Assembly (NCBI GenBank): GCA_026388655.1
Contig: JAPLJI010000004.1
Span: 1,543-65,542, forward strand
Direction: 5' to 3'
Length of the DNA stretch: 64,000 nt
Origin: Pseudomonadota bacterium
Lineage (GTDB): Bacteria > Desulfobacterota > JAPLJL01
Both the position numbers and the translations under genes were made by a program. This document shows positions 2,562 through 63,442 of this stretch, piece by piece. Positions within the stretch are counted from its first letter, which is position 1, and each line of letters begins with the position of its first letter. Under the pieces are notes generated by a model. It did no database searches. It saw only the letters and a program-made list of their open reading frames with translations, and was not told the DNA's origin.

Positions 2562-3869
2562 TCATTCCCCGCTGGTGATTCCCTCCTTAGCTTTTTCCGC
2601 CGGCGTTTCCGTGGGTGGGATGACCCGGATTCGGACGATCCTGATCCCGGAGACATCCACCGCTTCGAGCTGGTGGTTGCCGACGCTGACCAGATCGCCA
2701 TTGTGCGCGGTCCGACCCAGTAGATTGATGAACAATCCCCCGATGGTCTGCCCCTTCCCTATCTGCGGGTGCTGCAGGCTCTGACCGGTCTGCCGGTTAA
2801 AATCCACCACCTTCATCCTGGCCAGAACCAGGTAATGCCCATCCGGCTCCTTCTGAATCGCCTCCAGTTCTTCCTGGTCAAACTCATCCCGGATCTCGCC
2901 CACGATCTCCTCCAGGATGTCTTCCGCGGTCACCAACCCGACGGTGGCCCCGAATTCATCCTTCACGATCGCCATGTGGGAAAAGCTGATCTGCATTTCC
3001 CGGAGAAGCTCGAGCGTCTTCTTCCCGGCCGGGACCCGCAGCACCGGGCGGATGATGTCCCGGTGGGTTCCCTTCAAAACCCCCCGGGAGATCGCGATCA
3101 CATCCTTCAGGTGAACCACACCCACGACATGATCGAGATCCCCCCGGTAAACCGGAACTCGGGTATACCTGTCCTCCACCATCTGGCTTAAAACCTGTTC
3201 CGGACCGGCATCCTCCGAAACCGCGAAAATTTCCGCCCGCGGCACCATCACCTCCGCCACGGTGGTCTTGGAGGCCTGGAGCGCGGCGCCCACGATGACC
3301 GCCGGGTATTTTTCGATCGAGCCGGTCCGGGCCCCCACCCGCACCAGGCGGAGGATCTCCTCTTCGCTGACCGCTTGCTCCAGGGCCTCCCGTCCCCCCA
3401 GAATCTTGATCAAAGGCGCGGTGATCAATTCCAGAAACTTGCTGAGGGGCCAGAGCAAACCTTGAATCGCGTACAGGGGAAGCGCAACCAGGCTGGAATA
3501 CCTTTCCGGGTTGTTCGCGGCCAGGGTTTTCGGGATGATTTCACAGAAAATCAGGATGACCGCGGTCATGATTCCGGTGGCCGCCAGCACCCCCAGTTTC
3601 TCTCCCCAGATGCCGACAAACAAGGATGCCGCCACGGCGCTGGCCGCGATATTCGCGAGGTTGTTTCCAATCAGAATCGAGGAAAGAAACCGGGAGGTGG
3701 AAGAAAGGATATGGCGGATCACCACCGCGGTGGCCTGGCCCGCCCCGGCTTTCGACTCCACCGCCGCCAGTCGCAGGCGTAAAAGCGCGGTCTCGCTCAT
3801 AGCAAAAAATGCCGAGAATAATAGACAAATAAAAATTATCAGGATTTCATTCATGTAACTCATGCTCAC
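2562..3869 (-). CDS. CNNM/CorC/HlyC-family membrane protein (DUF21 transmembrane region, CBS pair, CorC_HlyC C-terminal domain)
   Basis: 435-aa ORF with an N-terminal hydrophobic DUF21-like region (SAFFAMSETAL), central CBS-type domains and a transporter-associated C-terminal domain. Confidence 0.85.
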   Translation of the reverse strand: MSMSYMNEILIIFICLLFSAFFAMSETALLRLRLAAVESKAGAGQATAVVIRHILSSTSRFLSSILIGNNLANIAASAVAASLFVGIWGEKLGVLAATGIMTAVILIFCEIIPKTLAANNPERYSSLVALPLYAIQGLLWPLSKFLELITAPLIKILGGREALEQAVSEEEILRLVRVGARTGSIEKYPAVIVGAALQASKTTVAEVMVPRAEIFAVSEDAGPEQVLSQMVEDRYTRVPVYRGDLDHVVGVVHLKDVIAISRGVLKGTHRDIIRPVLRVPAGKKTLELLREMQISFSHMAIVKDEFGATVGLVTAEDILEEIVGEIRDEFDQEELEAIQKEPDGHYLVLARMKVVDFNRQTGQSLQHPQIGKGQTIGGLFINLLGRTAHNGDLVSVGNHQLEAVDVSGIRIVRIRVIPPTETPAEKAKEGITSGE

Positions 3870-3961: not shown

Positions 3962-4427
3962 CGACTTCCACGATCAGGTCCAGTTCCACCGCGGCCCCGC
4001 CGGGGAGCTCGGCCACCCCCACCGAAACCCGGGAGTGCCGCCCGGCCTCGCCAAACACTGCCAGCAGGATATTGCTGGCCCCGTCTGCCACCTGCGCCTG
4101 TTCTGTGAATCCCAGGGCCGAATTAACATAGCAGTTCAGGCGGATAATTTTCTTTACCGCGGCCAGGTTTTTGATCTCGCTTTTAATCGCCGCCAATCCG
4201 TTTAAAAGCGCCAGGCGGGCCGCCTCCTGTCCATCCTTGAGATTGAGTTCCTGCCCCAGTTTCCCGACCGAAACCAGCCTTCCTTCCAGCCGGGGAAGCA
4301 TCCCGCTGACAAAAACTAGATTCCCCACCCGCACCACGGGTAGATAGGCCCCCAGGGGGCGGGGAGGGTCAGGCAGTCTTAACCCCAGTTCGGTGATCCG
4401 GTCTTCAATTTGGAGATCTTTAATCAT
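3948..4427 (-). CDS. ridA: RidA/YjgF/TdcF-family reactive-intermediate (enamine/imine) deaminase
   Basis: 159-aa ORF with the C-terminal motif AAVELDLIVEV and overall YjgF-family similarity. Confidence 0.8.
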   Translation of the reverse strand: MIKDLQIEDRITELGLRLPDPPRPLGAYLPVVRVGNLVFVSGMLPRLEGRLVSVGKLGQELNLKDGQEAARLALLNGLAAIKSEIKNLAAVKKIIRLNCYVNSALGFTEQAQVADGASNILLAVFGEAGRHSRVSVGVAELPGGAAVELDLIVEVEPRD

Positions 4428-4469
4428 AAATCAAGGTCAGCTCTTTCCAGAACGTTTAGCATTTATTAT

Positions 4470-4560
4470 GTAGTTGCCCGATTTATTTATCCCGACATCG
4501 GGAGGGATCGGGCTCTGAAGGATTTTTTTCAGACCGAGCCTCATAAATGAGGCAACTACA
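4470..4560. repeat. REP-like palindromic elements in inverted pair (gtagttgcccgatttatttatcccgac ... gaggcaactac)
   Basis: GTAG-initiated palindromic units with a CCGATTnATCGG core. The same family recurs at 5044-5130, 5591-5638, 14004-14099, 25311-25409, 46340-46370 and 51927-51981. Confidence 0.7.
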
Positions 4561-4868
4561 AATTCATTATCCAGATCCGAAATCCCCGTCATTTCGCTAC
4601 GGGAATGACTGATGAGGAAACATTTAAGACCACATGCATTATTCATTATAATAGCAATCAGAATGGGATGGGAATCGGCCATGACCAAGACAATAATATT
4701 TTATTCTTTTTTTATTACCCCTTTATCTAAATCTTCTCCCCTGCGGGGAGAGGGAAGGGTGAGGGGGAAAAATCAAGAGGCAGGGTGCGGGCCTTCTGGT
4801 CTCTGGAAGGCGCCCTCCCGGGCCTCCCGGCCCGGGACTCCGGCCTTCGAGCAAAATCCAGAGGCTTA

Positions 4869-4984
4869 ACGAACGCAACGAAACCCGTTGTTGTTGTTCT
4901 GGTTCGTCGGGTTGTTGTTGTTCCGATTGGATGCGCGCAGGTTGTTGGTGTTGTTGTTCCAGCTCCCGCCGCGCAAGACCCGGT
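4869..4984 (-). other. DGR-type template repeat (TR): AAC-codon-rich 116-nt copy of the 3' end of the FGE-domain gene
   Basis: Minus-strand translation ...YNRVLRGGSWNNNTNNLRASNRNNNNPTNQNNNNGFRCVR* parallels the C-terminus of the 5683-6726 protein. It differs from 5686-5801 only at TR adenines, at about 17 sites. It has no upstream start codon and no ORF context. Confidence 0.8.
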
Positions 4985-5043
4985 TGTATCCGGGCCCGCC
5001 CCCTTTCAATCATGACCGTCATTCCTAGATTGACCGTTGTTTC

Positions 5044-5130
5044 GTAGTCCGCCGATTTATCGGCACCGTAGTCCGCCGATTTATTTATCCCGATTTCAGA
5101 GGGACCTGTCCCGTCCCTGGCGGGATCGGC
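5044..5130. repeat. REP cluster (gtagtccgccgatttatcggcaccgtagtccgccgatttatttatcccga...) flanking the 3' side of the RAYT gene
   Basis: Tandem GTAG-REP units of the same family as 4470-4560. Confidence 0.7.
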
Positions 5131-5545
5131 ATTCATTTTTATAAAAATCCTCAAACTCGATCTTCTCCACCAACGGGTTATTCTGAACATACTCCCGAAT
5201 CCGACGGAGGGCTTCTTCATTCCTGATCACATGCTCATAATAATTCGGCTGCCACAATTTCCTCCCCGCCTTCTTGCTCGTTTTTGCCTTGAATCTTCTC
5301 ACCACTTCACCCAATTTCAACCCGCATCCGGTTAAAACCAATATCAGGTGAAGGTGATCGGCCATTAAAACATGGAAATCCAGCCCGATACCCTTGATTG
5401 CCGGCAAATCCCGGATCTCTTCCTCAATCAATTTCAAATCATCCGCTGAAAATCCGGCGCGGTCATTGGAAGCTATGGTTACGAAGTAGTGGCCATCGGC
5501 TGAATAGTCGTAATTCTTCAGCCGAATATTTTTTAGGCCTTTCAT
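5096..5545 (-). CDS. REP-associated tyrosine transposase (RAYT; IS200/IS605-like Y1 HUH transposase)
   Basis: 149-aa ORF. The HUH motif HLHLIL and catalytic-Tyr region WQPNYYEHVIRNE align with E. coli RAYT (HMHCIW / WQPRFWEHAIRN). It is flanked on both sides by GTAG-type REPs. Confidence 0.85.
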   Translation of the reverse strand: MKGLKNIRLKNYDYSADGHYFVTIASNDRAGFSADDLKLIEEEIRDLPAIKGIGLDFHVLMADHLHLILVLTGCGLKLGEVVRRFKAKTSKKAGRKLWQPNYYEHVIRNEEALRRIREYVQNNPLVEKIEFEDFYKNECRSRQGRDRSL

Positions 5546-5590
5546 TTTTCGTTATTCAAAACCGCCGATCCCGCCCAGTGACGGGACACG

Positions 5591-5638
5591 TAAATCGGCG
5601 AACTACAAAAACAAATGCCCCATAAATGGGGCAACTAC
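5591..5638. repeat. REP units (taaatcggcgaactac ... ggggcaactac) flanking the 5' side of the RAYT gene
   Basis: Same REP family, lying between the RAYT gene and the VR/stop of the FGE-domain gene. Confidence 0.65.
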
Positions 5639-5682
5639 ATTTTCCCAAATTCCAAACTCCAAAATTCCAAAACTATTTAGAC

Positions 5683-6726
5683 CTAACGAACGCAACGAAA
5701 CCCGTAGCTGCCGTTCTGGTTCGTCGGGTTGTAGTAGCCCCGAAAGGATGCGCGCAGGTAGACGGTGACGTTGTCCCAGCACCCGCCGCGCAAGACCCGG
5801 TATGACCCCGAAGAAGGCCCCTGCGGATCCTGCGTCGGGCTGGTTGAGTAATACGCCGAATCATACCAGTCATTCACCCACTCCCAAACATTCCCGGCCA
5901 TGTCATAAAGGCCATATCCATTCGGGGCAAAGCTCCCCATCGCGATCGTATCATCCGGAGAACATGAATCATACTGCGACCCGTTATTCGCCCCCAAGGT
6001 ACAGGTGGGCGAATCATCCCCCCACGGATACCTCTTGCCCGCCAATCCTCCCCGCGCCGCATACTCCCACTCCGCCTCCGTCGGCAGTCTCCCTCCCGTC
6101 CATTGGCAAAATGCCTTCGACTGGCTCCAATCCACATAGATCACCGGGTAATTGTCGTAGATTGCATTTCCATAATATGAAGAGCGGGTATAGGAAGAAC
6201 TGCTTCCCGGGGCGGTGCAGGACCCCGCATCCACGCAGGCCTTGTATTGGGCGTTGGTCACTTCATAAACATTCATCTGGAAAGCCGAGATGCAGACATT
6301 ATGAACCGGTCGTTCTTCTGATCCGCCCTCATAGAAGGCATCGCCCATGTTGAAACAGCCGGCAGGGATGATGGAGGTCATTTGGCTCACGCCCTCAACG
6401 CACTGACCCGCCGAGCAGTAATATCCCGTTCCACACGCCGTCACCGTCCCCCACTCCCAACACGGATCCGCATCGGTATTTCCGCAGGTCTGATATCCGC
6501 TCCCCGAACACTGCTTCGCCCCATTGGTTGAACATTCATTGGTGCATCCATAACAAGTTTCCGTGTTATAGCCCGACCCATTCTGGTCGCAGGGGTTGTT
6601 GAAATCGTAGCCGCAAGCCAAAAATAGCATAGGGCAAAGGGCAAGGAGCAAGGCGGGAAAAACGAAAGAAAATAATGAACGACGAAAAGAAAGCAATGAG
6701 TGTAAAACAAAGGGAAATTTTTTCAT
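5683..6726 (-). CDS. Secreted formylglycine-generating-enzyme (FGE/sulfatase-modifying factor, C-type lectin fold) domain protein with a Cys-rich N-terminal domain; putative DGR target
   Basis: Start reassigned to ATG at 6726 (MKKFPF..., signal peptide, RBS AAGGGGAGGGGAG). It carries the FGE signature RLPTEAEWEYAARGG and GNVWEWV, and its C-terminal 39 codons form the variable repeat. Confidence 0.85.
   Translation of the reverse strand: MKKFPFVLHSLLSFRRSLFSFVFPALLLALCPMLFLACGYDFNNPCDQNGSGYNTETCYGCTNECSTNGAKQCSGSGYQTCGNTDADPCWEWGTVTACGTGYYCSAGQCVEGVSQMTSIIPAGCFNMGDAFYEGGSEERPVHNVCISAFQMNVYEVTNAQYKACVDAGSCTAPGSSSSYTRSSYYGNAIYDNYPVIYVDWSQSKAFCQWTGGRLPTEAEWEYAARGGLAGKRYPWGDDSPTCTLGANNGSQYDSCSPDDTIAMGSFAPNGYGLYDMAGNVWEWVNDWYDSAYYSTSPTQDPQGPSSGSYRVLRGGCWDNVTVYLRASFRGYYNPTNQNGSYGFRCVR
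5686..5801 (-). other. DGR-type variable repeat (VR) at the 3' end of the FGE-domain gene
   Basis: 116 nt matching 4869-4984 with mismatches only opposite TR adenines. TR AAC codons become TAC, GAC, GTC, TTC, GGC and AGC codons in the VR. Confidence 0.8.
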
Positions 6727-6829
6727 CGCCAAGCTCCCCTCCCCTTGAGATGATCCTCCGATTGCAACGGTCTCTTTAAATTCAGGTCGCTCATTTTCCA
6801 ATTCATCCATTAATTACCTACACAATTTT

Positions 6830-8719
6830 TTAAAACCGCCATTCCGCGCCCATCCCGCCGGGAAACGCGAACGCTTGAAAGGCGTAGGGGAGGGCCTCGT
6901 GCCCTCCCACCCCTGGGCGGGGATAAACCCCGCCCCTACCTTCTGATTGGTCCGTTCGGGGAGCGAACCCTACCCTCGAACCCTCGAACCCTGGGACCCT
7001 TGAACCCTTTATTTCTTTCGGCAACGAGGGACGGGAAAACAAGGCGATGACTGCGGTGATGACCCCCGCCCCGACTATTCCCAGGCCGATATAGGTGACA
7101 TTCCGGTTCGATTCGGTGTCGCTCCGGAAGCGGTCAAGGTCGGCCTGGACTGACGCGCCCTTATAACTGTCATGCGCCGAATCGGCCCGGACCTTGAATA
7201 AAACCGCCAGCGCCGTCCCCGCCGCCGCGATTCCGGCCCCGGAGATGGTAAAGACATTCGCGACCTTCCTCTTGGTTTTGAGCGTAGACAGGTATCCGGG
7301 CCTGAAACCCAAGGCGACGTTCAACTGCTTTTCCTCGCCCCGCCCGATCTCGATCTCGCTGGCCTGGGCTTGGTAATTCCCCCCGCCCCTGATCTCCATC
7401 TGGTGCTTTCCCCAGGCTACCTTTTCCTTCGTGACCGGGGTGTTCCCGAGTGACTTCCCATCCACCAGCACCGCCGCCCCCGAAGGCCGGGATTGAACGG
7501 TCAAATAACCGAAATTCGGCTTCAGCCGGGCCTCCAGCGTCTTCTCCTCCCCGACCTTAACCGCCGCTTCGTACTCCAGGGCTTCATAATCGGGGGCGGA
7601 GACCTTGACCCGGTATTTCCCCGGCGGGACCAGGTAATCGCACGGGGTTGAATTCGCCGGCAATCCGGCGATTTCAACCCTGGCCCCGGAGGGATCCGAA
7701 ATCACCCTGATTAACGCCCCTTTGACCAGATTGAGCGTGACCATTTCTTCCGTCCTAGAAATGCTGACATCCTTGCCCGTCCGCACATACCCTTTCTTCT
7801 CCGCCTCCACCCGGTGCGTCCCCATCGCCACCTCCGTGAGCGTGGCCGGCGAGGAACCCGCTTCCCGGCCGTCCAAGTAGATCCTGGCCTCCGGGGGTTC
7901 GGTGATCACCGTGAGCCGGGCCTTCATCTCCTCCATCGGCACGGTGACGTTGGTGAACTGGTCCCTGACGACCGTCACGTTGATCCGACCGTAATAATTC
8001 CCCTTCCTGGCTTCCACCTGGTAATCCCCCGCGGGAAGGTTTGCGAGGGTTAGGGGGGTATCGCCAACCCGTTGATCGTTCAGCGTGACCGCCGCCCCCG
8101 GGGGATCGGTCTTGAGGTAAAGGCCGCCCTTGGCCCCTTCACCCCTTTGGGAGGGGGTAAACCCCTCCCCTACACCCGGAGGAGAGGGAAAAACACCGCT
8201 TTTGGGAGTAAAGGTTACCGGGAGGCCCATCAGCTTCCCCGCCAAAACCCGGACCAGATCCAGGAGATCCTCCGGCTCGCACCGGCACTTCTCCGAGGCC
8301 GATGACTCGATCTTCCCCGTTTCCACGTTCACGAGCTGAATCATCCCGATGGAGGTCTCCCCGAGCCGGTTCATGCTTCCGGTGACGACCTTCCCTACCC
8401 CGAGGAGCTTCCCCATGTCCACCCGGCATTTTTCTTCCACGCAATCCTTTACCTGAAAACCCTGCTCCTCCAAAATCTTGTCCCGGTTGGCCCGGTCAAT
8501 CACCTCGTAGCGGCCGATCTTGACCAGCTCGTCAATCACGGCGTTGGTGAGAATCACCTTGAGGGACGGGTCCAGCCCCTTCGCCACGTCCAGGTCAATG
8601 ACCGCGATATAGTTCTGCACCCGCTCGATTTTCCCCTCCTCCGCCGCGGCCGGGGCCGGTAAACTTAAAGGAAACACTGTCAGGGTGAAAATCAAGAAAA
8701 GAAAAAACCTGGATCGCAT
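6830..8719 (-). CDS. Secreted PEGA-domain repeat protein with an N-terminal CsgG/LpoB-like domain and a C-terminal TM anchor
   Basis: Start reassigned to ATG 8719 (MRSRFFLFLIFTLTV signal peptide, GGGAGG RBS). Several PEGA-like repeats follow (P-x-GA-x-V/I-x-x-DG-x-x-x-G-x-TP). The 3' end of the ORF runs into low-complexity intergenic repeats, so the true stop may lie earlier. Confidence 0.6.
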   Translation of the reverse strand: MRSRFFLFLIFTLTVFPLSLPAPAAAEEGKIERVQNYIAVIDLDVAKGLDPSLKVILTNAVIDELVKIGRYEVIDRANRDKILEEQGFQVKDCVEEKCRVDMGKLLGVGKVVTGSMNRLGETSIGMIQLVNVETGKIESSASEKCRCEPEDLLDLVRVLAGKLMGLPVTFTPKSGVFPSPPGVGEGFTPSQRGEGAKGGLYLKTDPPGAAVTLNDQRVGDTPLTLANLPAGDYQVEARKGNYYGRINVTVVRDQFTNVTVPMEEMKARLTVITEPPEARIYLDGREAGSSPATLTEVAMGTHRVEAEKKGYVRTGKDVSISRTEEMVTLNLVKGALIRVISDPSGARVEIAGLPANSTPCDYLVPPGKYRVKVSAPDYEALEYEAAVKVGEEKTLEARLKPNFGYLTVQSRPSGAAVLVDGKSLGNTPVTKEKVAWGKHQMEIRGGGNYQAQASEIEIGRGEEKQLNVALGFRPGYLSTLKTKRKVANVFTISGAGIAAAGTALAVLFKVRADSAHDSYKGASVQADLDRFRSDTESNRNVTYIGLGIVGAGVITAVIALFSRPSLPKEIKGSRVPGFEGSRVGFAPRTDQSEGRGGVYPRPGVGGHEALPYAFQAFAFPGGMGAEWRF

Positions 8720-11391: not shown

Positions 11392-11526
11392 AAGTCCTTC
11401 ATCGGCTGTCAGCTTTCAGCCTTCAGCGATAGACCTGTTCTACTCCATCCTCAACGCAGGCTAAAGCCTGCGACTACCATTTTACCAATTCCGCAATCTG
11501 CATTCCGCAATCCGCATTCGAAAGGT

Positions 11527-13914: not shown

Positions 13915-14003
13915 CTCTATTATAAAATCGTAGTGGCCGACCTTGGTCGGCAAGTAAGTCGAGCAAGCTCGACCGCTACAGTTTGATCAGAAATAACTCG
14001 GAA

Positions 14004-14099
14004 GGCCGATAAATCGGCAAACCACAAAACAATGTTTCGTTTTTCTTCGTAGTTGCCCGATTCATCGGGCGCATTTTAACCGGCCGACAAATCGGCCGG
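14004..14099. repeat. REP-family palindromes (ggccgataaatcggc; gtagttgcccgattcatcgggc; ccggccgacaaatcggccgg)
   Basis: Three units with the CCGAnnAATCGG palindromic core, one of them GTAG-initiated. Confidence 0.6.
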
Positions 14100-14942
14100 T
14101 TACAACAAACGGCAGTATTCTTTCGTGGCTTCTTCCCAGGAGCGGAGCGGACTGATCCCAAGCGGAGCGAGATTTAAAGAGACCAGGGGACTTTGCGGCG
14201 GTCTTTTGGCCGGGAGCGGAACCAGCCAGGAATTGACGGGTACAATCGCCGTCGGGTCCAGACCGGCGGACTCTAAAACCAACCGGGCCTGATCCACCCG
14301 TGAACAGCTCCCCGAGTTGGTTACATGATACGTGCCGAAGCCTTCCTTTCGGGATATTTCTTGGATAATTCGGGCCAGGTCCGGGGCGTAAGTGGGGCTC
14401 CCGATCTGATCCTGAAAAATCCGGGGATGTAACCCTTTTTTCACCTGGGCGACGACCCAGCTGGGGAAATCCTTGCCGGGTTTGCCGAAAAGCCAGGCGG
14501 TCCGGACGATGTAATGTTCCGGGAGAAGCTCCCGAACATAATTTTCCCCGGCCAGCTTGCTGGAACCGTATACGCTGATCGGTTTGGTGGAATCCTGCTC
14601 GGTATATGGGTCCCTCTTGGTTCCGTCAAAGACGTAATCTGTACTGATATAAACCAGGCGGGATCCGGCCTTTTTGGCCCCCACCGTCACGTTCCGGGTC
14701 CCGAGCGCGTTGATTTTAAAAGCCGATTCCGGTTTCTTTTCACAGCCATCCACATCGGTCATGGCCGCGGTATGAATAACCAGCTCCGGGTGAACCTTCT
14801 CAATCAGAGTGGTGATGGAATCAAGATCGGCGATGTTGGCTTCTTCCAGATCGATCCCGACGACCTCGTTTTCCGTGGAAGTAAAAACCTCCCGGACCTT
14901 CCCCCCCAGCATCCCCTGGCTTCCGGTGATTAAAACTTTCAT
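14100..14942 (-). CDS. rmlD: dTDP-4-dehydrorhamnose reductase
   Basis: Start reassigned to ATG 14942 (MKVLITGSQGMLG...). RmlD/RfbD family, last gene of the rml block. Confidence 0.85.
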   Translation of the reverse strand: MKVLITGSQGMLGGKVREVFTSTENEVVGIDLEEANIADLDSITTLIEKVHPELVIHTAAMTDVDGCEKKPESAFKINALGTRNVTVGAKKAGSRLVYISTDYVFDGTKRDPYTEQDSTKPISVYGSSKLAGENYVRELLPEHYIVRTAWLFGKPGKDFPSWVVAQVKKGLHPRIFQDQIGSPTYAPDLARIIQEISRKEGFGTYHVTNSGSCSRVDQARLVLESAGLDPTAIVPVNSWLVPLPAKRPPQSPLVSLNLAPLGISPLRSWEEATKEYCRLL

Positions 14943-15115
14943 AAAGAATTCCTGGAATTTGATGTGTCCTTCCCGCGGAAGCGGGAATCCAGGCAAGGAT
15001 CAAATCCTGGATTCCGCATCAAGTGCGGAATGACGTAAAAAGACACCCTCCTGGCAAGACTGCGGTGAATTGCATGTCCGAATTCCATTTGAACTTTTGA
15101 TTTTGAACTTTGGAT

Positions 15116-16141
15116 TTATTTGTTGATTCTCCACCCATACGTCTTTTCATAATATTTCTGGTATTCACCCGATTTGATCCGCCCCCACCAGGATTTGTTT
15201 TTTACATACCAATTAATCGTATCCTTAATTCCCTGCGCGAAATTAACCCGGGGGCGCCAGCCCAGCTCGCGCTCGATCCGGGTAAAATCAATCGCGTAGC
15301 GGCGGTCGTGGCCCGGCCGGTCGGCCACATGCTTGATCAGGCTGTCCGGTTTCCCCAAAGTCTCTAAAATCAACTTCACGATCTCGATATTGGTCCATTC
15401 GTTTCCGCCCCCGACATTGTAAACCTCCCCCGGCTTGCCCTTTTCCAGGACCAGGAGCAGGGCCCGGCAGTGGTCTTCCACGTGAATCCAGTCCCGGACC
15501 TGCAAGCCGTCTCCGTATACCGGCAGGGATTTATCCTCCAGGGCGTTGCTGATCATCAGGGGAATCAGCTTCTCGGGGAATTGATAGGGCCCGTAATTGT
15601 TGGAACAGCGGGTAATGAGCACCGGCAGCTTATAAGTCTCGAAGAAAGCCAGGCTGAGGAGATCGGCGCCGGCCTTGCTGGCGGAATAGGGACTGCGCGG
15701 GGAAAGCGGGGTGGTCTCCACAAACTTCCCGGTCGGTCCGAGCGATCCATATACCTCATCGGTGGAAATCTGCAGGAACCGTTTCACCCCGCGCTTCCGG
15801 GCGGTCTCCAGGAGGGTCAGCGTCCCGGTGACATTGGTGCGGATAAAATCCTCCGCGGACTCAATCGAGCGATCGACGTGCGATTCCGCGGCGAAATTGA
15901 TGACCGTATCAATTGAATTGGCGGTCCAGATTTCTTCCATGATTTTGGGATCGGCGATGTCACCCCGGACAAAACGGTAATTCGTCCCGGCGAGTTCTTC
16001 CAGCCCTTCCAGATTTTCCAGGTTTCCGGCGTAGGTAAGCTTGTCGAGGTTGACGACGCCGATTACCGGACGCTCGCGAACGAGGAAACGGATAAAATTA
16101 GAGCCGATAAAACCAGCCCCGCCCGTTATCAGAATCTTCAT
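15116..16141 (-). CDS. rmlB: dTDP-glucose 4,6-dehydratase
   Basis: 341 aa, MKILITGGAGFIGSNF..., extended SDR with catalytic YSASK. Confidence 0.92.
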   Translation of the reverse strand: MKILITGGAGFIGSNFIRFLVRERPVIGVVNLDKLTYAGNLENLEGLEELAGTNYRFVRGDIADPKIMEEIWTANSIDTVINFAAESHVDRSIESAEDFIRTNVTGTLTLLETARKRGVKRFLQISTDEVYGSLGPTGKFVETTPLSPRSPYSASKAGADLLSLAFFETYKLPVLITRCSNNYGPYQFPEKLIPLMISNALEDKSLPVYGDGLQVRDWIHVEDHCRALLLVLEKGKPGEVYNVGGGNEWTNIEIVKLILETLGKPDSLIKHVADRPGHDRRYAIDFTRIERELGWRPRVNFAQGIKDTINWYVKNKSWWGRIKSGEYQKYYEKTYGWRINK

Positions 16142-16398
16142 ACTTTGTAAATCCCCATGACCAATTTACAAATCCCAAACAAATCCCAAATCCCAATGTC
16201 AAAAAGGAAACCACATTTTTATGTGATTCCTTGTTTTTGAAAATAAGATCATAAGCAAAGTCCGGAAAATCGCCTCGCCCTGTTCTTCCCCTTCAGGGCG
16301 ATTCTCACCGAGGAAGAGAAAATGTTCTTCTTGGTCTTATTATTGGGATTTTGGTCATTGGTAATTGTTTGGGATTTGGGATTTTGAAATTGGGATTT

Positions 16399-16854: not shown

Positions 16855-16919
16855 TTCACCTCCCTCTATTCCTCCATTAGAAATTCGGCATTAGAAATTA
16901 GACATTGGATATTAGATAT

Positions 16920-17654
16920 TTACTTAAATTTATTCCCTATTTTCTTCTCCGCCACCAGGTTGGTCGCCCGCCGGAGCGAATCGAACGTCCCCGCGTCGGT
17001 CCACCAGCCTCTTAAAATACTGAAAGACAGCTCTCCCCACTTCAAATAATGGTTGTTTACGTCCGTGATCTCCAGTTCTCCCCGGCCGGATGGCTTCAAG
17101 GTTTTGATAATGTCAAACACCCGGCAATCGTAAAAATAAATCCCGATCACCGCGAAATTGGAAGGCGGCCGCTTCGGCTTCTCCAGGATCTGTTTCACCT
17201 TTCCCTTGACGACCTCCGCCACCCCGAACCTTTCCGGGTCCGGCACTTCCTTCAGCAGGATCTTGGCCCCTTTTTTCTGGCGCTTATATTCCTGGACCGC
17301 CGGTTTGATGCTTCCCTCGATGATATTATCCCCCAGAAACACGCACAGGGGCTCGCCCGCGCAGAAATACTCCGCCAGCCGCAGGGCGTCCGCGATCCCG
17401 CCCTCGCCTTCCTGGTAGGTGTAATTCAAATGCTTCAGCCCGAACTCGCTCCCATTCCCCAGGAGCCGCAGGAAATCCCCGGCGTGCGGTCCGCCGGTCA
17501 CGATCAGGATATCGGTTATCCCCGCCTGCACCAGCGATTGGAGCGGATAATAAATCATCGGCTTGTCGTAAACCGGCAAGAGATGCTTGTTGGTAATCTT
17601 GGTCAAGGGACTCATCCGGGTGCCCAGCCCGCCGGCCAGAATTACGCCTTTCAT
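16920..17654 (-). CDS. rmlA: Glucose-1-phosphate thymidylyltransferase (short form)
   Basis: 244 aa, MKGVILAGGLGTRMSPLT... nucleotidyltransferase signature, in the rmlACBD context. Confidence 0.8.
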   Translation of the reverse strand: MKGVILAGGLGTRMSPLTKITNKHLLPVYDKPMIYYPLQSLVQAGITDILIVTGGPHAGDFLRLLGNGSEFGLKHLNYTYQEGEGGIADALRLAEYFCAGEPLCVFLGDNIIEGSIKPAVQEYKRQKKGAKILLKEVPDPERFGVAEVVKGKVKQILEKPKRPPSNFAVIGIYFYDCRVFDIIKTLKPSGRGELEITDVNNHYLKWGELSFSILRGWWTDAGTFDSLRRATNLVAEKKIGNKFK

Positions 17655-17865
17655 AATCCGCCCTCCATCTGATTCATCTGGTCTGTCTGGTCTATTTTAG
17701 CAAGGAGCAGAGAGCATAGCGCATAGGGTTTAACTCGAAACTCTGAACCCTCGGCCCTTTTTTTCCATTCTGCAATCCTCAGCAAGGCTGAAGCCTTGCC
17801 CTACATCTCCCCTTGGCCCCTGGAACCCTCGAACCCTTGAACCCTATTTTTTATTCCGTATTGTC

Positions 17866-21783: not shown

Positions 21784-21959
21784 AATAAAGGGTTCAAGGG
21801 TCTTAGGGTCCAAGGGGTCAAGTAAAGATTTGAAAAACCCTTGTTGGCGTCATCCTGAGCTTAGCGAAGGATCTTCTTTTCTTGAATCCTTGATCCTTGA
21901 TCCTTGCACCCTCGAACCCTGGAACCCTGGAACCCTTGGACCCTAGGACCCTATCCAAA

Positions 21960-22676
21960 ATGTTTCTAAAAGATCTCCTCGATTATTTCCGCGGGCAGGA
22001 CCGGCGCAGCGCCACTATCCTTTTAAGCTCGGTCGTCCTGATGGTGATATATCTCTACCAGGGCAACCATAATTTTTTCCTTTTTCATTTCGGAAGCGGA
22101 TTCTACGACCGGAACCAGGCCCTGACCTTCGGCCAAGTCTATCAATGCACAGTCGCCTTCCTGCTCTGGGCACTGGTCCCGATTCTCCTGATCAAATTTT
22201 TTATCGGGGACGACCTGAAAGATTACGGGATCTGCCTGGGGGACTGGCGGTTCGGTCTGAAGTTTTTTCTCCTGTCGATTCCTATCCTGCTCCCCCTTCT
22301 TTACCTGACCTCCTTGAACCCGGAATTCCCGGCCGAGTACCCCCTCGCCCCGCTGGCCGCACAGGGAGTCAGAGGTTTTATCCTCTGGGAGCTTTGTTAT
22401 CTGGTTTACTACCTGGGGTTTGAGTTCATTTTCCGCGGTTACATGCAGCTGGGGCTCCTGAAGCGACTGGGGCCATTCCTGGCGATAATGGCACAAACCA
22501 TCCCTTCCACCATTGTCCACTGGGGAAAACCGGAGGGAGAAACCATCGCGGCGATTGTCGCCGGTCTCGCCTTCGGCGCCCTGGCCATACGGACCCGCTC
22601 GATTCTCTGGGGTCTCCTGGTTCATTACTTCGTGGGGATCGCTACCGATTTTTTCTGCTTGCTTCAACGGATTTAA
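21960..22676 (+). CDS. CPBP-family (CAAX/Abi) intramembrane metalloprotease
   Basis: Start taken as ATG 21960 (MFLKDL). Multi-pass membrane protein with motifs EFIFRG, an FxxxH-like segment (TIVHW) and HYFVGIATD. The upstream part of ORF 21897 lies in intergenic repeats. Confidence 0.6.
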   Translation: MFLKDLLDYFRGQDRRSATILLSSVVLMVIYLYQGNHNFFLFHFGSGFYDRNQALTFGQVYQCTVAFLLWALVPILLIKFFIGDDLKDYGICLGDWRFGLKFFLLSIPILLPLLYLTSLNPEFPAEYPLAPLAAQGVRGFILWELCYLVYYLGFEFIFRGYMQLGLLKRLGPFLAIMAQTIPSTIVHWGKPEGETIAAIVAGLAFGALAIRTRSILWGLLVHYFVGIATDFFCLLQRI

Positions 22677-23827: not shown

Positions 23828-24086
23828 CGATTGACGATTGGGAGAAAAGTAGCAGGGAGCAAAGAGCCGTTGGCAAGAAACAGGTAGGCGCAGGCTTTAG
23901 CCTGCGTTCTTAATAATTGGCTGCAAATTGCCGAATGTATTGGTCGTTTATCCTGTAAGGAAGCTTGCTCGACTGAAAATTTGCAGGGCAAGCCCTGCCA
24001 CTACGATCAAAAAATCAGAAAGCCAACGCCGAAGTTGAAACCCCCAAACCAATTGCCTAAGATGTAATAAACGCCAGCATCAAGAA

Positions 24087-25310: not shown

Positions 25311-25409
25311 GTAGTTGCCCGATTTATTTATCCCGACTCCAGAGGGATTTATCAAGATATCGGAGGGATCGGGCTTTATGCAAAACCGCCGATGAATCGG
25401 CATACTACA
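25311..25409. repeat. REP-family cluster (gtagttgcccgatttatttatcccgac ... ccgccgatgaatcggcatactac)
   Basis: Near-identical to the REPs flanking the RAYT at 4470-4560. Confidence 0.7.
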
Positions 25410-25491: not shown

Positions 25492-27423
<1,932 letters not shown>

Positions 27424-27825
27424 ATCCTATTCGTCATCCCCGCGAAGCTTGTCCTCGAAGTCTTTAATCGGGGAGCGGGGATCCATAAGAATTGGTGGCA
27501 AATTTTTCACGCAAGCTGGATTCCTCCCGCCCCTGGCGGGACGGGAATGACTTTGCGGTTTGTCGCTTTAACTTGGCCCCTTGAAACCTCGAACCCTTGA
27601 ACCCTTCCGATCGGCTTTCAACCTAGTGTAGTGTCTCAGCAACGGCTTTACAGTGATCATAATCCTTGGTTTTGATGATGTAGGGGCGGCTTTCTATAGC
27701 CGCCCGACGAGGGAGCCAGTCCCTCGAAGTTGCTCGGGATAAATGGAATGGTTTATCCTGAAGGGACTCATCCTGAAGGGCTCCCCTACAAGAGACGTCC
27801 ATGTGTAAAGATTTTCATGAAACAC

Positions 27826-30472: not shown

Positions 30473-30693
30473 AGCGTCTTAAGTAATTGCGCATTAATCG
30501 TCATTCCCGTCCCGTCATCGGCGGGAGGAATCCAGAAAAACAATCTGGATTCCGGGTCAAGCCCGGAATGACAAGGATTTTTGACATACACGCATAATTG
30601 TTTTGTTATTTATAATCATATCTAAATTACTCTTTGCTCTTTTTCCCTATGCGCTATGCGCTTTGCTTCTTGCTCTTTGCTCCTTGCCCCTGA

Positions 30694-33411: not shown

Positions 33412-33568
33412 GACTTATAAGGGTTCAAGGGGTCGAGGGGCCAAGGGGTCGAGTGAATGATTGGAATCAATGAAATTAAATGGTAAAAATTGGTCATTGG
33501 TCATTATTAACGGGGAATTATTTGAAAATCTGAGACTAGATTTGAATCCAGGTTGACTCTATCAATTG

Positions 33569-34060: not shown

Positions 34061-34363
34061 AATTTAATCGAATTCCGCCATTTTGCCAACTTTGAACCCC
34101 ATTGAAAATTTACCATTTGTTTTTTTCAATAGGGTTCAAGGGTTCGAGGGTCCAAGGGAAAAATTTAAATTCAGCTCTGGATTCCTGCTTTGGCAGGAAT
34201 GACCTTATTTTTTTCATTCGTCAATCGTCATTCGTCAATCGTCAATCCTTTTTAACTCGAAACCCAAAACTCACAACTCGAAACTGTTATTACCCTTCGA
34301 CTCCTCGGCCCCTTGGACCCTAGAACCCTTGGACCCTGTTATAATTAATAGTTAGGGCTGGTC

Positions 34364-34741
34364 GGGCGGCCGCTCCGACGTCCGGGCAACCGGGCTCGGG
34401 GAGGAAAGTCCGGACTCCATAGGGCTGGGTGCCCGCTAACGACGGGTCAGGGTAACCCCAAATGGGGTAAACCTGAAGGAAAGTGCCACAGAAAACATAC
34501 CGCCCTGAGAGCAATCGAGGGGTAAGGGTGAAAAGGCGAGGTAAGAGCTCACCGCCCCGAAGGTAACTTCGGGGGCAGGGTAAACCCCACCCGGAGCAAG
34601 GCCAAATAAGGGAGCGTTTGAGGGTGGCCCGCCCGATGCTCCCGGGTAGGTTGCTTGAGGCCCCGGGTAACCGGGGTCCCAGAGAAATGGCCGCCGTTCC
34701 GCCTTAGGCGGGATACAGAATCCGGCTTATAGACCAGCCCC
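34364..34741 (+). ncRNA. rnpB: RNase P RNA, bacterial type A
   Basis: Contains GGAAAGTCCGGACTCCATAGGGC, the P4 region, AAGTGCCACAGAAAACATACCGCC, and a P1 pairing between gggcuggucg at the 5' end and agaccagccc at the 3' end. About 378 nt. Confidence 0.9.
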
Positions 34742-34874
34742 CTTTATTAATACTGAGCCCAGCGCTGAGAGCAAAGCGCATGGAGCACGGAGCATAGAGC
34801 AAAGAGCGGAGAATGAATTACCCCGCCCTCGGACCAGAAAACCCGCAAGCCGCGACTCAATCAATTCGAATTTT

Positions 34875-45937: not shown

Positions 45938-46195
45938 CTCCGTCGTTGATCCCGGCACCGACCTTGCGGACATTGAACCTCAGGCGGGCTCTCTTTCGCC
46001 GGTGTGGTTCAGCCGCGGAGCCGAGAGCTGATATTGCCCCCGAAAATGGGCACACGACTAAGCACATTTTGCCATCGCCGATGACTCATACTCAAAAGGT
46101 GTAACGTAATCGAGTGTAGTATGGAGCCTTCGGGAATTATAGAAAGATTCAATATACTCGAACAATACTTTTCGCAAGAAATTCCAAAAATTCCA

Positions 46196-46262
46196 GGGTC
46201 AGGTCTTTATCTTGCTATTTGCGATAATTTTCTCCACCTTCTTCCGAAACTTCAAATCCTCT
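46196..46262. repeat. Copy 1 of a roughly 70-bp direct repeat (caggtctttatcttgctatttgcgataattttctccaccttcttccgaaacttcaaatcctc)
   Basis: About 88% identical to 48623-48690 in the same orientation. The two copies bracket the OYE reductase gene. Confidence 0.7.
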
Positions 46263-46459
46263 TCCACTTTCCTCTTCATGTTGCTAACACACCGGCTCCC
46301 CCGGTATACCCCAGACCGAACTTCTCGCCAATTACCTTCTATCTCAATCCCAACACCCGCCGGGATAAATAAATCGCCACCCGCCGCGCCTTGCTCGTCT
46401 TCCAAACACCAAAGTAAAGACTTGACCCTAGAATTTGCCAGAATTTCGCTACTTCTGAT

Positions 46460-48397: not shown

Positions 48398-48622
48398 GGT
48401 TCCTCCTTATCATTTGCCGGCGCGGGCCTTCGGGATGTCCTTTACTTCTTGACATTTAAAGAGATTCAACCCCTCCGGTAAATCCGCCGACTGTGAAAAA
48501 ATCCCTTTCCCTCGCAAAACCGTTCGCGATACCGCGCTCTGCTCCAAACCAAGTTCCCGGGCCATATCAACATTTCGCATCCACCTCACCAACTCTCCCG
48601 CCTCCACTCCATAAGAAAATTT

Positions 48623-48690
48623 TAGGGACAGGTCTTTACCTTGGCATTTGCGATTATTTTCTCCTCCTTCTTCCGAAACTTCAAATCCTC
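48623..48690. repeat. Copy 2 of the roughly 70-bp direct repeat
   Basis: See 46196-46262. Confidence 0.7.
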
Positions 48691-49060
48691 CTCCTCTAAT
48701 AATTGTTTATTATGATAAACAATTTACATCAAAATTGTTTACCTTGATAGATTTTTTAAAACAATCGTAAATAATGCCGGTGTGAGTAGCATTTATATAG
48801 ACCGTTGCTAACCTCTCGATATGTCATTCCTTCATTTCATTCAGGACGGCGCCTGAGTCCTTCGCTCTTTGTCATCCTGAGCACATTCGCTTCACTCAGT
48901 GTAAACTCCGTGAAGGATCTCGAAGGGCTCAGGATAAACCTTGCGGTGAGCGAAGCGAATCTGTTCGCGAAGGATCTGGTTTTTCGGATTTCTCCGACAG
49001 AAGAGAGATTCTTCGCCCCTCGAAAACATTGGGGCTCAGAATGACATTTTTCCTGAAAAT

Positions 49061-49897: not shown

Positions 49898-50020
49898 TTT
49901 CAGGTTCAGGGTTCACGGTTTGAATATGTAATGTCATTCCTGCGGAAGCAGGAATCCAGTTCTTAAAAACATTTAATTTATTTGCTCTGGATCCCAGCTT
50001 TCGCTGGGATGACGATCATA

Positions 50021-51031: not shown

Positions 51032-51106
51032 TTTAGCATTCTTGTAGGATGGATATAATAAATCAGCATATTAATTCCAATGCTTATTTACACGAGTTTA
51101 TCAACT

Positions 51107-51250
51107 GTCATTCCCGCGAAAGCGGGAATCCAGATCCTTTTTGTCATCCCCGCGAAAGCGGGAATCCAGATCCTTTTTGTCATCCCCGCGAAAGCGGGAA
51201 TCCAGATCCTTTTTGTCATCCCCGCGAAAGCGGGGATCCAGGAGTGGAAA
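51107..51250. repeat. Tandem array, 4 x 36 bp, of the palindromic unit GTCAT(T/C)CCCGCGAAAGCGGGAATCCAGATCCTTTTT
   Basis: Exact head-to-tail copies with no spacers. Each unit contains a tcccgc/gcggga stem. A related half-unit follows at 51250-51304. Confidence 0.9.
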
Positions 51251-51779: not shown

Positions 51780-52095
51780 ACTAGTAAAGTTCAAATATCA
51801 AAGTTCAAATTTCAAATGAAGCTCAAAATCCAAATTTCAAATTGGAAAAATCAAGGAAAGTTATATTGAAATGGTAGAAAATATTTCTGTTCCCTCGAAC
51901 CCTATTTTAATAACAACCTATATTTTGTAGTTCGCCGATTAATCGGCGCTTTTAAAACCTGCCTGATGAATCGGGCAACTACAAGAAAAAATTAAATCGA
52001 TTGCGTTTCATGCTTTGCTCTGTGATTTCGCAGGCTGAAGCCTGCGGCTACAGCTCTCTGCCCTTTGCGCTTTGCCCTCTGCTTCAGCGGACCTT

Positions 52096-54424: not shown

Positions 54425-54641
54425 TTCTCTTGAACCCTCGGCCCTTATCGTAGCCCGTTCTTTTCCGGTATTCCGTCTACGGTCTGCCGTCCGCTATTTT
54501 CTTTTTGGGGGGTGGTTTTCTGAAAACCCAAATAAACCAAAAAAATGCATTAAACGTTTTGCTCTATGCCCTATGCTCTTTGCGCTTTGCGCTTTGCCCT
54601 TTGCGGCGGTCGGCGGTCGGCCGTCTGCGGTCATTATGATT

Positions 54642-59706: not shown

Positions 59707-59964
59707 TCCCCCCTCTTAAAATAATTACCAATTCTCAAGTCCCAATTTCCAAACTCAAAACCAGAAACATTTTTATGTCGGTGTTTTTAACTCGAAACTC
59801 GAAACTGTTTTTAAATTCCGCAATCCCTCCCCTCCGGCCTGTAAGCCTTACGGGCTGGAAGCGAGGGCCGGAGGCCGCAATCCACAATTCTCAGCAAGGC
59901 TGAAGCCTTGCCCTACATTTCCCCTTGGCCCCTGGAACCCTAGAACCCTTGAACCCTGGTTTTA

Positions 59965-61164
59965 TTAGTCCAGCTTCATCGTCTTGATCAGTTTCCGAGC
60001 CTTATTCTGATAAAAAATGTTTTCCGCCTCCGCCGGGGGAAGGGATTTGGGATCCTGGCCCAGGACAAATTCCAGGCTCTGCCTGGCTTGGACCGGGTCG
60101 TCGAGCGAAATAGCGCACTCGGCCAGGGCCTGATTGGTTTCCAGATAACCGGGCATGAAGACCGCGGACAGCTTCAGCAACGGAACCACCCGTTCCGGGT
60201 CAAAGCCCAGGATGGGCAAGAATCTCCGGGTGAGCGAACCGGCATAAGCCAGGCAGTAACCGATGTACCGGGAAGACCCCAGATAGAAATAAACCGGCTC
60301 TTCCTGGATGGAGATTTTTACATAATGAAAAATCTCGGGGGCCAGGCGGGCTTGGCGTAGAAATGAACCCTCCTTGGCGTAACGGGCCAGGGAGGCTCCG
60401 GTCCAAAAATTCGCCCCCGCGTGCCGCGGCTTTAATGCCACCGCTTTCACCCCGAATTCATAACCGCGGTGGTAAAGCTTTTCTCTTTCCTCCCTGGTTT
60501 CCCCGTTTTCACCCAGCCAGTAATAAGCCCGGGCCAGCCAGGCATAAGCCGCGAAGGCCTGGGGATCCCCCTGGGTGATCCGCTCCCAGATGTCGATTGC
60601 CCGGCGGGCCTCGTCGAGATTGCCCCTTTTGTCCCAATGAGCCAGGGCTTCCCGGTAAGCCGGAACGCCTTCCGGCACCGGGAGCTCCCTTCCCGCCGGG
60701 ATCTTTTCCGCCAGTTTCTTGATCACCGGGTCGGCCAGGTTGGCCTGGTCGGCGAAACCGATCGCCGAGGAAAGCCAGTAAAGGGCATAGACATTTTCGG
60801 GATCCGCCTGCAAAACCTTCTGGCTATGCCGGCCGGACTCTTTCATGATGCTTATGCCTTTTTTCTCCTGGCTCTCTTTAACCCCCTGGATGAAATAAAC
60901 CCGGGCCAGCCATAATTCGGGCTCGATCTGATCGGGATGATTGGCCGCCAGCTTTTTAAACAACTCCAGCGTCTGATCGATATTCTTGCTTTTCTCCCGC
61001 TTCTCCCAGAAGGAAAGGGCTTCCTTCCAGAGCGGATCATCCTGGCGGGTCGGCGGCTCCGGAACAAAAACCTGTTCGATCACCGCGGCTAGAGCGTCAC
61101 GCTCGCAAACAACCAGGAAGAAGATCGATCCCAGGGCCAGTAATAACTTTTTCATCCGCGTCAT
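59965..61164 (-). CDS. Secreted hypothetical protein with TPR-like helical repeats
   Basis: 399 aa with an N-terminal signal peptide (MTRMKKLLLALGSIFFLVV) and a repetitive helical pattern. Confidence 0.5.
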   Translation of the reverse strand: MTRMKKLLLALGSIFFLVVCERDALAAVIEQVFVPEPPTRQDDPLWKEALSFWEKREKSKNIDQTLELFKKLAANHPDQIEPELWLARVYFIQGVKESQEKKGISIMKESGRHSQKVLQADPENVYALYWLSSAIGFADQANLADPVIKKLAEKIPAGRELPVPEGVPAYREALAHWDKRGNLDEARRAIDIWERITQGDPQAFAAYAWLARAYYWLGENGETREEREKLYHRGYEFGVKAVALKPRHAGANFWTGASLARYAKEGSFLRQARLAPEIFHYVKISIQEEPVYFYLGSSRYIGYCLAYAGSLTRRFLPILGFDPERVVPLLKLSAVFMPGYLETNQALAECAISLDDPVQARQSLEFVLGQDPKSLPPAEAENIFYQNKARKLIKTMKLD

Positions 61165-62038: not shown

Positions 62039-62216
62039 TTTTTCCGCTCCCGATTAACTATTGATTTGGTTTCTCTGGTTTCTTTAGTTTCTCTGGTTCT
62101 TTAACCCACCCAACAACCCAGCCACCTAGCTACCCCAAACGCAGGCTGAAGCCTGCGGCTACCTGTAATCGGCTTTTCCTGTCCGCAGTCCGCGTTCGGT
62201 GGTCGGCGGTCAGCAT

Positions 62217-63299: not shown

Positions 63300-63442
63300 C
63301 CTCCTTATAAGTTTCGGGTTTCGGGTTTCGGGTTTAGAGTTTTGAATTTGAGACTTGGTTATTGGTCATTGTTTGGTTATTGGTGCTTGGTCATTGGGAT
63401 TTGATTAGACATTAGAAATTTGGCATTAGAAATTCCGTCCTA

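Follow-up and report, generated by a model that had tools for sequence, protein, structure and literature searches.

A gene recorded merely as a transposase and enclosed by inverted hairpins raises the question of whether gene and hairpins form one system and, if so, of which kind. The case considered here lies on contig JAPLJI010000004.1 of the bacterial assembly GCA_026388655.1, in a stretch of 64,000 nucleotides that was analysed as a whole (the window), where an open reading frame (ORF) on the minus strand at 5096-5545 encodes a protein of 149 amino acids, here called RAYT-a. The segment 5044-5638 very probably constitutes a REPtron, i.e., a single gene for a REP-associated tyrosine transposase (RAYT, or TnpA_REP), a monomeric Y1 HUH nuclease acting on single-stranded DNA (ssDNA), located between its cognate repetitive extragenic palindromes (REPs), in the layout defined for Escherichia coli and others (PMC8266576; PMC6006769). 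The cassette is ordinary in kind and the system offers little that is new in principle, as it extends a known kind of element to an uncultured lineage. The clade to which this RAYT belongs is widely distributed among uncultured bacteria and poorly annotated.

A preliminary description made from the sequence had recognized a RAYT in this ORF by the HUH motif HLHLIL and the stretch WQPNYYEHVIRNE, both of which are present. RAYT-a passes the Pfam model Y1_Tnp (PF01797) with 27.7 bits against a cut-off of 23, and its closest solved structure by sequence is E. coli TnpA_REP (PDB: 4er8; E = 6e-6). Structure prediction with AlphaFold2 from 50 homologs gave a model with a predicted local distance difference test (pLDDT) value of 79.4, and a Foldseek search with this model returned 4er8_A first (TM 0.63, 23% identity), followed by the transposases of ISDra2, IS608 and IS200. 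Together with the catalytic and GTAG-contact residues, which are all in place, these matches bear out the proposed identity as a Y1 HUH protein of the RAYT type.

The roles of individual residues were taken from the structural study of E. coli TnpA_REP (PMC3479197). In the alignment to 4er8, the HUH motif of RAYT-a (H64-L-H66) corresponds to E. coli H59/H61, while the catalytic tyrosine Y119, within REYVQNNP, corresponds to Y115 and is followed by N123-P124, of which N123 matches the E. coli metal ligand N119. Y119-VQN-N123-P124 thereby reads as the class 2 signature Y-x3-N-P. A conserved tyrosine had been noted before, but it had been placed in WQPNYYEH; this block aligns to E. coli W94...R104 and is therefore the GTAG-recognition region, with Y119 located 17 residues beyond it. 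Within the complete block (WQPNYYEHVIR), W98, Q99, E104, H105 and R108 are all present and correspond to W94, Q95, E100, H101 and R104 of E. coli, the residues that contact GTAG according to Quentin et al. (PMC6006769). H64, H66, W98, N101, Y102, E104, H105, R108, Y119, N123 and P124 are invariant across the 50 homologs, and Q99 is nearly so.

The hairpins around the gene occur in two forms. The short REP measures 22 nt; two bases separate its GTAG head from a stem of 7 bp with a foot rich in G-C pairs, and its invariant centre, ATTYAT, comprises the inner two pairs of the stem and a 2-nt loop. In the long REP, found at 4470-4513, 5068-5130, 5563-5606 and 25311-25374, the outer stem is retained and a second hairpin is nested in the loop after TTTAYNTRT. 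Read in the orientation of the gene, the cassette starts with a short REP whose head is distal (5617-5638, minus strand, GTAGTTGCCCCATTTATGGGGC) and a long REP (5563-5606, minus strand) with the outer stem CGCCGAT/ATCGGCG, an asymmetric internal loop TTACGTG and an inner hairpin TCCCG..CGGG. These are followed by RAYT-a, a second long REP (5068-5130, plus strand, repeat family D17) and a second short REP (5044-5065, plus strand, GTAGTCCGCCGATTTATCGGCA). The downstream pair is inverted relative to the upstream pair, so that all four heads point away from RAYT-a; the gene is thus bracketed by GTAG-headed palindromes as had been reported, with two units on either side. The downstream long REP overlaps the 3' end of the ORF and encodes its final ~11 codons and the stop, and the corresponding residues 139-149 are predicted to be disordered (pLDDT <50 in the AlphaFold2 model).

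The same units are dispersed over the window. The pattern GTAGTNNNCNNATT occurs 11 times (4470+, 4546-, 5044+, 5068+, 5593-, 5625-, 14049+, 25311+, 25395-, 51927+ and 51969-), compared to 0.2 expected occurrences, and none of 100 shuffles reached 11. Most of the recurrences listed in the preliminary description hold. A doublet of the REPIN/BIME (bacterial interspersed mosaic element) type with outward heads is located at 4470-4559 (long 4470-4513, plus; short 4538-4559, minus), and three further groups lie between convergent genes: a triplet at 14004-14103, a doublet at 25311-25408 (long 25311-25374, plus; short 25387-25408, minus) and a doublet at 51927-51982 (51927-51948, plus; 51961-51982, minus, with one stem mismatch). 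In the triplet, only the central unit (14049-14070, plus) carries GTAG, while the heads of the other two have decayed to GTGG (14004-14025, minus) and GTAA (14081-14103, minus). The unit placed at 46340-46370 does not stand, as the 16 nt at 46353-46368 (minus strand, CGATTTATTTATCCCG) lack both the GTAG head and the right arm and are a fragment of a long-REP interior rather than a complete unit. Likewise, the core CCGAT is not universal, with some stems reading GCCTCAT or GCCCCAT.

Folded as ssDNA, the doublets form one long hairpin each, with z-scores of -2.7 to -7.1 (the latter for 4470-4559), whereas the tandem units flanking RAYT-a fold separately. The layout around the gene and the return of its flanking units as inverted doublets at other intergenic sites both support the interpretation as a RAYT with its REPs. 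Of the tetranucleotides found 5' of perfect 7-bp hairpins in the window, GTAG is the most frequent (13/96), because several further GTAG-hairpin families with different stems are present. As a separate observation, the GTAA head of the minus-strand REP at 14081-14103 provides, at 14100-14103, the TAA stop codon of the ORF 14100-14996 (minus strand). GTAG heads that provide stop codons, REPs inside ORFs and REP families common to several species have been described before (PMC3733652).

Linkage of gene and repeat across relatives

A profile scan of JGI metagenomes yielded 80 loci with relatives of RAYT-a that are 43-72% identical to it and are diverse rather than near-identical copies. REP units at these loci were chosen by GTAG and the ATTYAT centre alone, disregarding pairing. 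Such units were found upstream of the gene in 58/77 cases, downstream in 61/76 and on both sides in 45/73, and their density amounts to 6.8 per kb in the nearest 250 nt on the gene's flanks compared to 0.16 per kb beyond 600 nt, a difference of ~40-fold. The association of gene and repeat is therefore not a local coincidence. In 145 distinct units, the stem positions pair in 91.6% of cells compared to 72.3% in shuffles, and double-sided stem changes number 193 compared to 59, while slid-partner controls pair in just 22-44% of cells. The predicted REP hairpin is thus backed by strong stem covariation. The stem types seen at the relatives include GCCCGAT, GCCCAAT, GCCTGAT, GCCCCAT, GCTCGAT, GTCCGAT and GTTTGAT; the two flanks of a given RAYT gene often carry unlike types, and the foot GCC..GGC is found in most units. 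Nested long forms are present also at L124, L132, L163, L165, L184 and L196.

The repeat was also searched for independently of the gene, with the 14-mer GTAGTTGCCCGATT and one genome per species (596 Gb), which gave at least 117 stretches. In a data set of this size ~4,400 matches are expected by chance, so most plain matches are meaningless. Among the matches listed, however, 47 of ~126 extend to the perfect hairpin GTAGTTGCCCGATTYATCGGGC, which is beyond chance. This exact 22-mer occurs, among the matches listed, in ~33 stretches of Candidatus Poribacteria genomes and in metagenome-assembled genomes (MAGs) labelled Nitrospirae, Dehalococcoidia, Chloroflexi, Anaerolineae, Ignavibacteria, Elusimicrobia, Nitrospinota, Omnitrophota and Actinomycetota. 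In one Anaerolineae MAG (L057) it adjoins a RAYT gene whose product is 58% identical to RAYT-a, and a RAYT locus from Poribacteria carries 20 REP units in 16 kb. Two contigs of a Lake Pavin MAG (L019 and L064) carry the REP unit and have a G+C content like that of the window, with which they have no DNA and no further repeat family in common. The REP is identical to the base in MAGs that carry many different phylum labels, although the proteins retain only 55-60% identity, and this contrast offers a clean natural data set for identifying the REP positions (GTAG head, ATTYAT centre, G-C foot) that the enzyme reads. Relatives of the protein itself are numerous: from 1.84 billion cluster representatives, a profile search retrieved 46 clusters at E 1e-30 and 8,610 at 1e-10.

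Among the described systems, the E. coli REPtron (Bertels group 2, Quentin subclass 2.2) provides both the top structural and the top sequence match to RAYT-a. Common to both enzymes are the Y1 HUH fold, the HUH motif, the catalytic tyrosine followed by N-P on the same helix and the W-Q..E-H..R block. The gene is likewise located between inverted GTAG-headed REPs, and the long REP of the window resembles the E. coli REP in its 7-bp lower stem (GCCNGAT/ATCNGGC), internal loop and upper hairpin. Differences are found at several levels. In addition to its low identity to the E. coli protein (~23%) and its score under the NCBIfam RAYT cut-off, the clade of the window is shorter (137-149 compared to 165 amino acids) and misses the C-terminal tail of ~20 residues, in which E. 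coli E161 completes metal binding and contacts GTAG, while E. coli H123 corresponds to about E127 in RAYT-a. The two enzymes may therefore not bind metal and read GTAG in exactly the same way. Furthermore, the predominant REP is a short perfect palindrome of 22 nt instead of the bulged long form, and 2 nt separate GTAG from the stem.

Judged by motifs and REP type against the tables of Quentin et al. (PMC6006769), RAYT-a is probably near their subclass 2.4 (Bertels group 4), exemplified by Aequorivita sublithincola AFL80743.1 with the REP GTAGGCGCGCGATTTATCGCGCGC. The homologs of RAYT-a share the Y motif YIxNNP and the W motif WQ with that subclass, its REPs also have G-C pairs at the stem foot (three in the subclass) and a common centre (GATTTATC / AATTTATT / GATTCATC), and its distribution is similarly patchy over many phyla. 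The hallmark of the subclass, REPs in frame inside tnpA, is seen in the relatives L130, L138 and P0071; in RAYT-a the REP-encoded portion is the C-terminal tail only. RAYT-a departs from the subclass consensus (NH[IFV]H and YIxNNP) in reading DHLH and YVQNNP, its length is below the subclass median of 194 amino acids, and no double-foot REPs were seen in the material considered here. As the comparison rests on motifs and REP type, subclass 2.4 is the closest described group rather than a demonstrated membership. The group 3 systems (subclass 2.5) of Pseudomonas and Stenotrophomonas share other features with the window, such as short, perfectly palindromic REPs with GTAG 1-2 nt from the stem, doublets that fold as one hairpin (REPIN) and several REP families per genome. 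They differ in the Y motif (YI[VI]ANP compared to YxxNNP here), in the replacement of E100 by D, where E104 is retained in RAYT-a, and in taxonomic range.

A retroelement remnant at the locus and its variants among strains

On either side of the cassette lies a copy of a 123-nt direct repeat (family D5; 4862-4984 and 5679-5801). One copy contains the 3' end of the gene 5683-6810 (minus strand), which encodes an FGE-sulfatase domain (PF03781, 207.8 bits), and the other, with 38 A within its 123 nt, has many AAC codons. The copies differ at 18 sites before the stop codon, every one of them an adenine in the second copy, with 0 differences at the other 81 positions compared. Such adenine-only mismatches are the signature of a diversity-generating retroelement (DGR), in which 5683-5801 is the variable repeat (VR) of the target gene and 4866-4984 the template repeat (TR), both on the minus strand. 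A target-site duplication and a paralog remnant were also considered as the origin of the repeats and were ruled out by the same mismatches.

The DGR of the window is a remnant. No YxDD motif is present in any frame of the 64 kb, no reverse transcriptase (RT) or Avd was matched by tblastn in the window, and the small ORFs near the TR gave no Pfam match. The VR has a TR-like 3' end (GTTCGTTAG), where relatives have TGCCAGGACAAATAG. The conserved spacer after the TR folds no better than shuffles (z = -0.7), and Rfam returned nothing near the locus, its sole match in the window being the bacterial RNase P RNA of class A at 34354-34745 on the plus strand (RF00010, 311.7 bits).

Relatives of RAYT-a are also found inside more complete DGRs. 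The metagenome loci L128 and L130 hold a complete element in the order target gene with VR, REPs, RAYT, PIN, bAvd, TR and RT (in L130, VR 2756-2868, RAYT 3001-3495, bAvd about 4300-4620, TR 4679-4791 and RT 5011-6078). In L138 the order is TR (27-143), REP cluster, RAYT (503-964) and RT (from 961), and the RAYT stop and RT start overlap in ATGA. Including the window and the outgroup locus L201 described below, RAYTs reside in two DGR lineages and four arrangements and are co-oriented with the DGR in all of them. Independent cases are few, all three metagenome loci stem from one pair of samples, and 851 kb of loci chosen by the REP pattern contained no TR-like stretch.

The co-occurrence of RAYTs and DGRs is suggestive. 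We know of no nuclease to which nicking or strand transfer in DGR homing has been assigned, and the literature searched made no link between DGRs and RAYTs. One may speculate, with little confidence, that the RAYTs of this clade are recurrent, co-oriented residents of DGRs that are perhaps functionally coupled to them, in that the HUH nuclease, acting at a REP hairpin beside the VR, may supply the homing nick or strand transfer; alternatively, ssDNA intermediates of the DGR may attract REPtrons. The location of a REPtron in a DGR remnant, with related RAYTs in intact DGRs, raises the interest of the locus somewhat, as does the exchange of one REPtron for another among strains described below. 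Separately, REPs were observed in frame within genes at L130 (1454-2872, 3001-3495 and 5011-6078) and L138 (503-964 and 961-1439), i.e., in the DGR target, RAYT and RT genes, where they are translated into the peptides VVAPFMGQ or VVAQFIGQ, DKSGNYK and CPIYRA; within the RAYTs of these two loci, the in-frame REP peptides VVAQFIEQ and DKSGNYK occur.

Seven contigs from conspecific strains (L199, L200 and L204-L208) keep the gene order of the window, with flanking genes that are 97.7-99.2% identical. In these strains, the window segment 5691-4846, which contains the VR end, the four REPs, RAYT-a and the TR, is replaced by ~900 nt of different content. The replacement holds the native end of the target gene (..GFRCCQDK*), another REP family (GTAGGGGCGGGGTTTATCCCCGCC and GGGAGGGG..CCCCTCCCCTAC) and another RAYT of 153 amino acids, which is 32% identical to RAYT-a and passes the NCBIfam RAYT model NF047646 with 101 bits, while the TR is absent. 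The Y motif of this other RAYT is YILNNP, for which a position near subclass 2.7 or 2.5 would be expected. The variable codons of the VR are identical in all conspecific strains, which indicates that the VR is frozen. The post-TR spacer (4845-4599) is kept at 98.8% identity, and directly after it the doublet 4470-4559 is swapped for repeats of yet another family, the doublet being missing in four conspecific assemblies. A clean insertion footprint was sought for this polymorphic doublet and not found, the junction being a mosaic of another repeat family. The triplet 14004-14103 is conserved in a conspecific strain, where its central head reads GTCG. Over 17 kb compared between the window and L208, the remaining structural differences are likewise located in repeat-bearing intergenic DNA.

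The outgroup L201, whose target protein is 76% identical to that of the window, shows a further arrangement, in the order target gene, bAvd with an in-frame stop, TR and spacer, REPs and an ortholog of RAYT-a. TR (about 4205-4321) and spacer are ~97% identical to those of the window over ~170 nt, and the RAYT-a ortholog (from 4714) has 75% DNA identity and an in-frame stop. One locus thus exists in three arrangements, and RAYT-a and its L201 ortholog lie on different sides of the TR. The position of the field is that evidence for mobility of tnpA_REP is lacking (PMC8266576). A cassette that differs between strains of 98-99% identity therefore makes the locus a directly testable case of REPtron turnover.

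Proposed mechanism and competing explanations

By homology with E. coli TnpA_REP, RAYT-a would bind a folded REP on one DNA strand, reading GTAG via W98-Q99...E104-H105...R108 and the hairpin via helix α3. Cleavage beside the REP would be carried out by Y119 together with a metal ion bound by H64/H66/N123, and strand rejoining could then copy or move REP doublets to other intergenic sites, in the window mostly between convergent genes. For the E. coli enzyme, strand-specific binding, cleavage and rejoining of REPs have been demonstrated in vitro, and such assays have been extended to TnpA_REP of S. maltophilia and Marinomonas (PMC8266576).

Several points weigh against the interpretation as a REPtron that spreads its REPs. 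RAYT-a scores 66.7 bits on the NCBIfam RAYT equivalog NF047646, under its cut-off of 80, and its relatives score 52-76 bits, likewise below it; the earlier statement that the protein aligns closely with the E. coli RAYT was too strong in view of this score, the E value of 6e-6 and the 23% identity. The scores place RAYT-a and its relatives in a clade other than that of the model's training set and of the characterised enzymes, and they reflect such a separate clade, not an absence of RAYT family features. This clade is outside NCBI's curated model, which is why the source record annotates RAYT-a merely as a transposase. In addition, binding, cleavage and spreading by RAYT-a are attributed to it by homology only. 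The REPs at 14004-14103 are common to a conspecific strain and have decayed heads, which shows that part of the family is old and not actively spreading, and the differences between strains are mosaics of several repeat families instead of clean insertions with recognisable cleavage sites. Finally, the window holds only about 11-14 units (~0.1-0.2 per kb), which by extrapolation would give a few hundred copies per genome if this density is representative.

Four other explanations have been weighed against the REPtron. A chance juxtaposition of gene and unconnected hairpins would fit the low copy number in the window and nothing else; it is refuted by the density of REPs, which is ~40-fold higher beside the 80 homologous genes than farther away, and by the matching REP next to the 58%-identical gene in an Anaerolineae MAG. 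An autonomous insertion sequence (IS) of the IS200/IS605 type, in which gene and terminal hairpins are mobile together and the dispersed REPs are solo ends or miniature inverted-repeat transposable elements (MITEs), is a more serious but still very unlikely candidate. The TnpA proteins of IS608 and ISDra2 share fold and chemistry with RAYT-a as well as subterminal hairpins with a 5' tetranucleotide guide, and the inverted hairpins that bracket RAYT-a resemble the left and right ends of such elements. The differing location of the orthologous RAYT, which follows TR and spacer in L201 but separates VR from TR in the window, and the different RAYT cassette in conspecific strains would also suit a mobile element. 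However, RAYT-a carries Y-x3-N-P, the class 2 RAYT signature, instead of Y-x3-Q of IS200, and the elements in question are dimeric, multicopy and often accompanied by tnpB, none of which is seen here: the window has no tnpB and a single copy of the gene. Scanning IMG/VR with the RAYT profile returned no relatives, the 80 homologs are diverse, and the rearranged junctions are mosaics of repeat families that fit REP-mediated recombination as well as transposition.

The RAYT might instead be an intact-looking relic amid old, vertically inherited REPs that serve the host, e.g., as terminators or mRNA stabilisers, with nothing being mobilised at present. We consider this unlikely, although it draws on real observations, namely the position of 14004-14103, 25311-25408 and 51927-51982 between convergent genes, the retention of the first of these between strains despite decayed heads and published accounts in which RAYTs are domesticated genes, present in single copy and inherited vertically (PMC5581495; PMC8266576). 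Against it, the ORF is intact with every catalytic residue present, and the doublet 4470-4559 and the REPtron differ between strains that are 98-99% identical, which indicates recent change. The remaining proposal, that the RAYT is functionally tied to its DGR, e.g., by nicking ssDNA at a REP hairpin beside the variable repeat, has only a slim chance of being correct. The recurrence of the clade's RAYTs inside DGR cassettes, in several arrangements and two lineages and always co-oriented, is in its favour, as are the ATGA overlap in L138 and the REP hairpin that follows the VR at a distance of 25-45 nt in both the window and L130. Yet DGR parts occur at just 3/80 RAYT loci, all from one pair of metagenomes, most RAYTs have no DGR nearby (e.g., the Poribacteria locus L198), the window itself is without RT or avd, and its VR is frozen, with the same variable codons in all strains. 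Moreover, these genomes insert REPs everywhere, even in frame within genes.

Other repeats in the window

Besides the REPs of RAYT-a, the window contains further families of GTAG-headed hairpins with TTYA loops and different stems (GTAGNCGCAGGCTTYAGCCTGCG, GTAGGGCAAGGCTTCAGCCTTGC and GTAGGGGNGGGGTTTAYCCCNCC) as well as singletons. They are located at 11455-11477 (minus), 23884-23906 (plus), 52029-52051 (minus) and 62140-62162 (minus); at 17782-17804 and 59894-59916 (both minus); at 6884-6907 (plus), 6916-6939 (minus) and 8150-8173 (minus); and at 13930-13951 (plus), 13958-13979 (minus) and 23983-24004 (minus). Of these, the GGGG family flanks the other RAYT of the conspecific strains; the window holds no second RAYT. 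A palindromic family without GTAG head, TGTCATYCCCGCGAAAGCGGGRATCCAG, forms a short tandem array and longer nested variants (14965-14992, 49932-49959, 51106-51241 with four copies at a 36-nt period, 27415-27551, 30500-30535 and 34170-34224), and copies of this family stand in for the REP doublet in conspecific strains (L204, 9182-9260).

Intergenic runs of an 8-nt periodic motif, GAACCCTN or its complement AGGGTTCN, are found at many sites (6962-7027, 17799-17864, 21788-21835, 21898-21963, 27567-27616, 33419-33466, 34130-34177, 34291-34356 and 59919-59968). An 86-nt repeat (17766-17851 and 59878-59963) consists of such a run and a GTAG hairpin. Shorter periodic intergenic repeats of the ATTAGAAATT type (14-nt period), the AAATCCCAA type and GCTCTTTGC heptamers are located at 16869-16927, 63404-63434 and 16149-16398 and at 52053-52082, 54561-54604 and 30651-30680, and the length of the spacer 16141-16398 is not the same in a conspecific strain. 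Finally, a short frame at ~46110-46168 (minus strand), which may resemble the C-terminal end of IS3-family transposases, adjoins an 82-nt direct repeat (46187-46268 and 48616-48697, 88% identity) and the REP fragment at 46353-46368.

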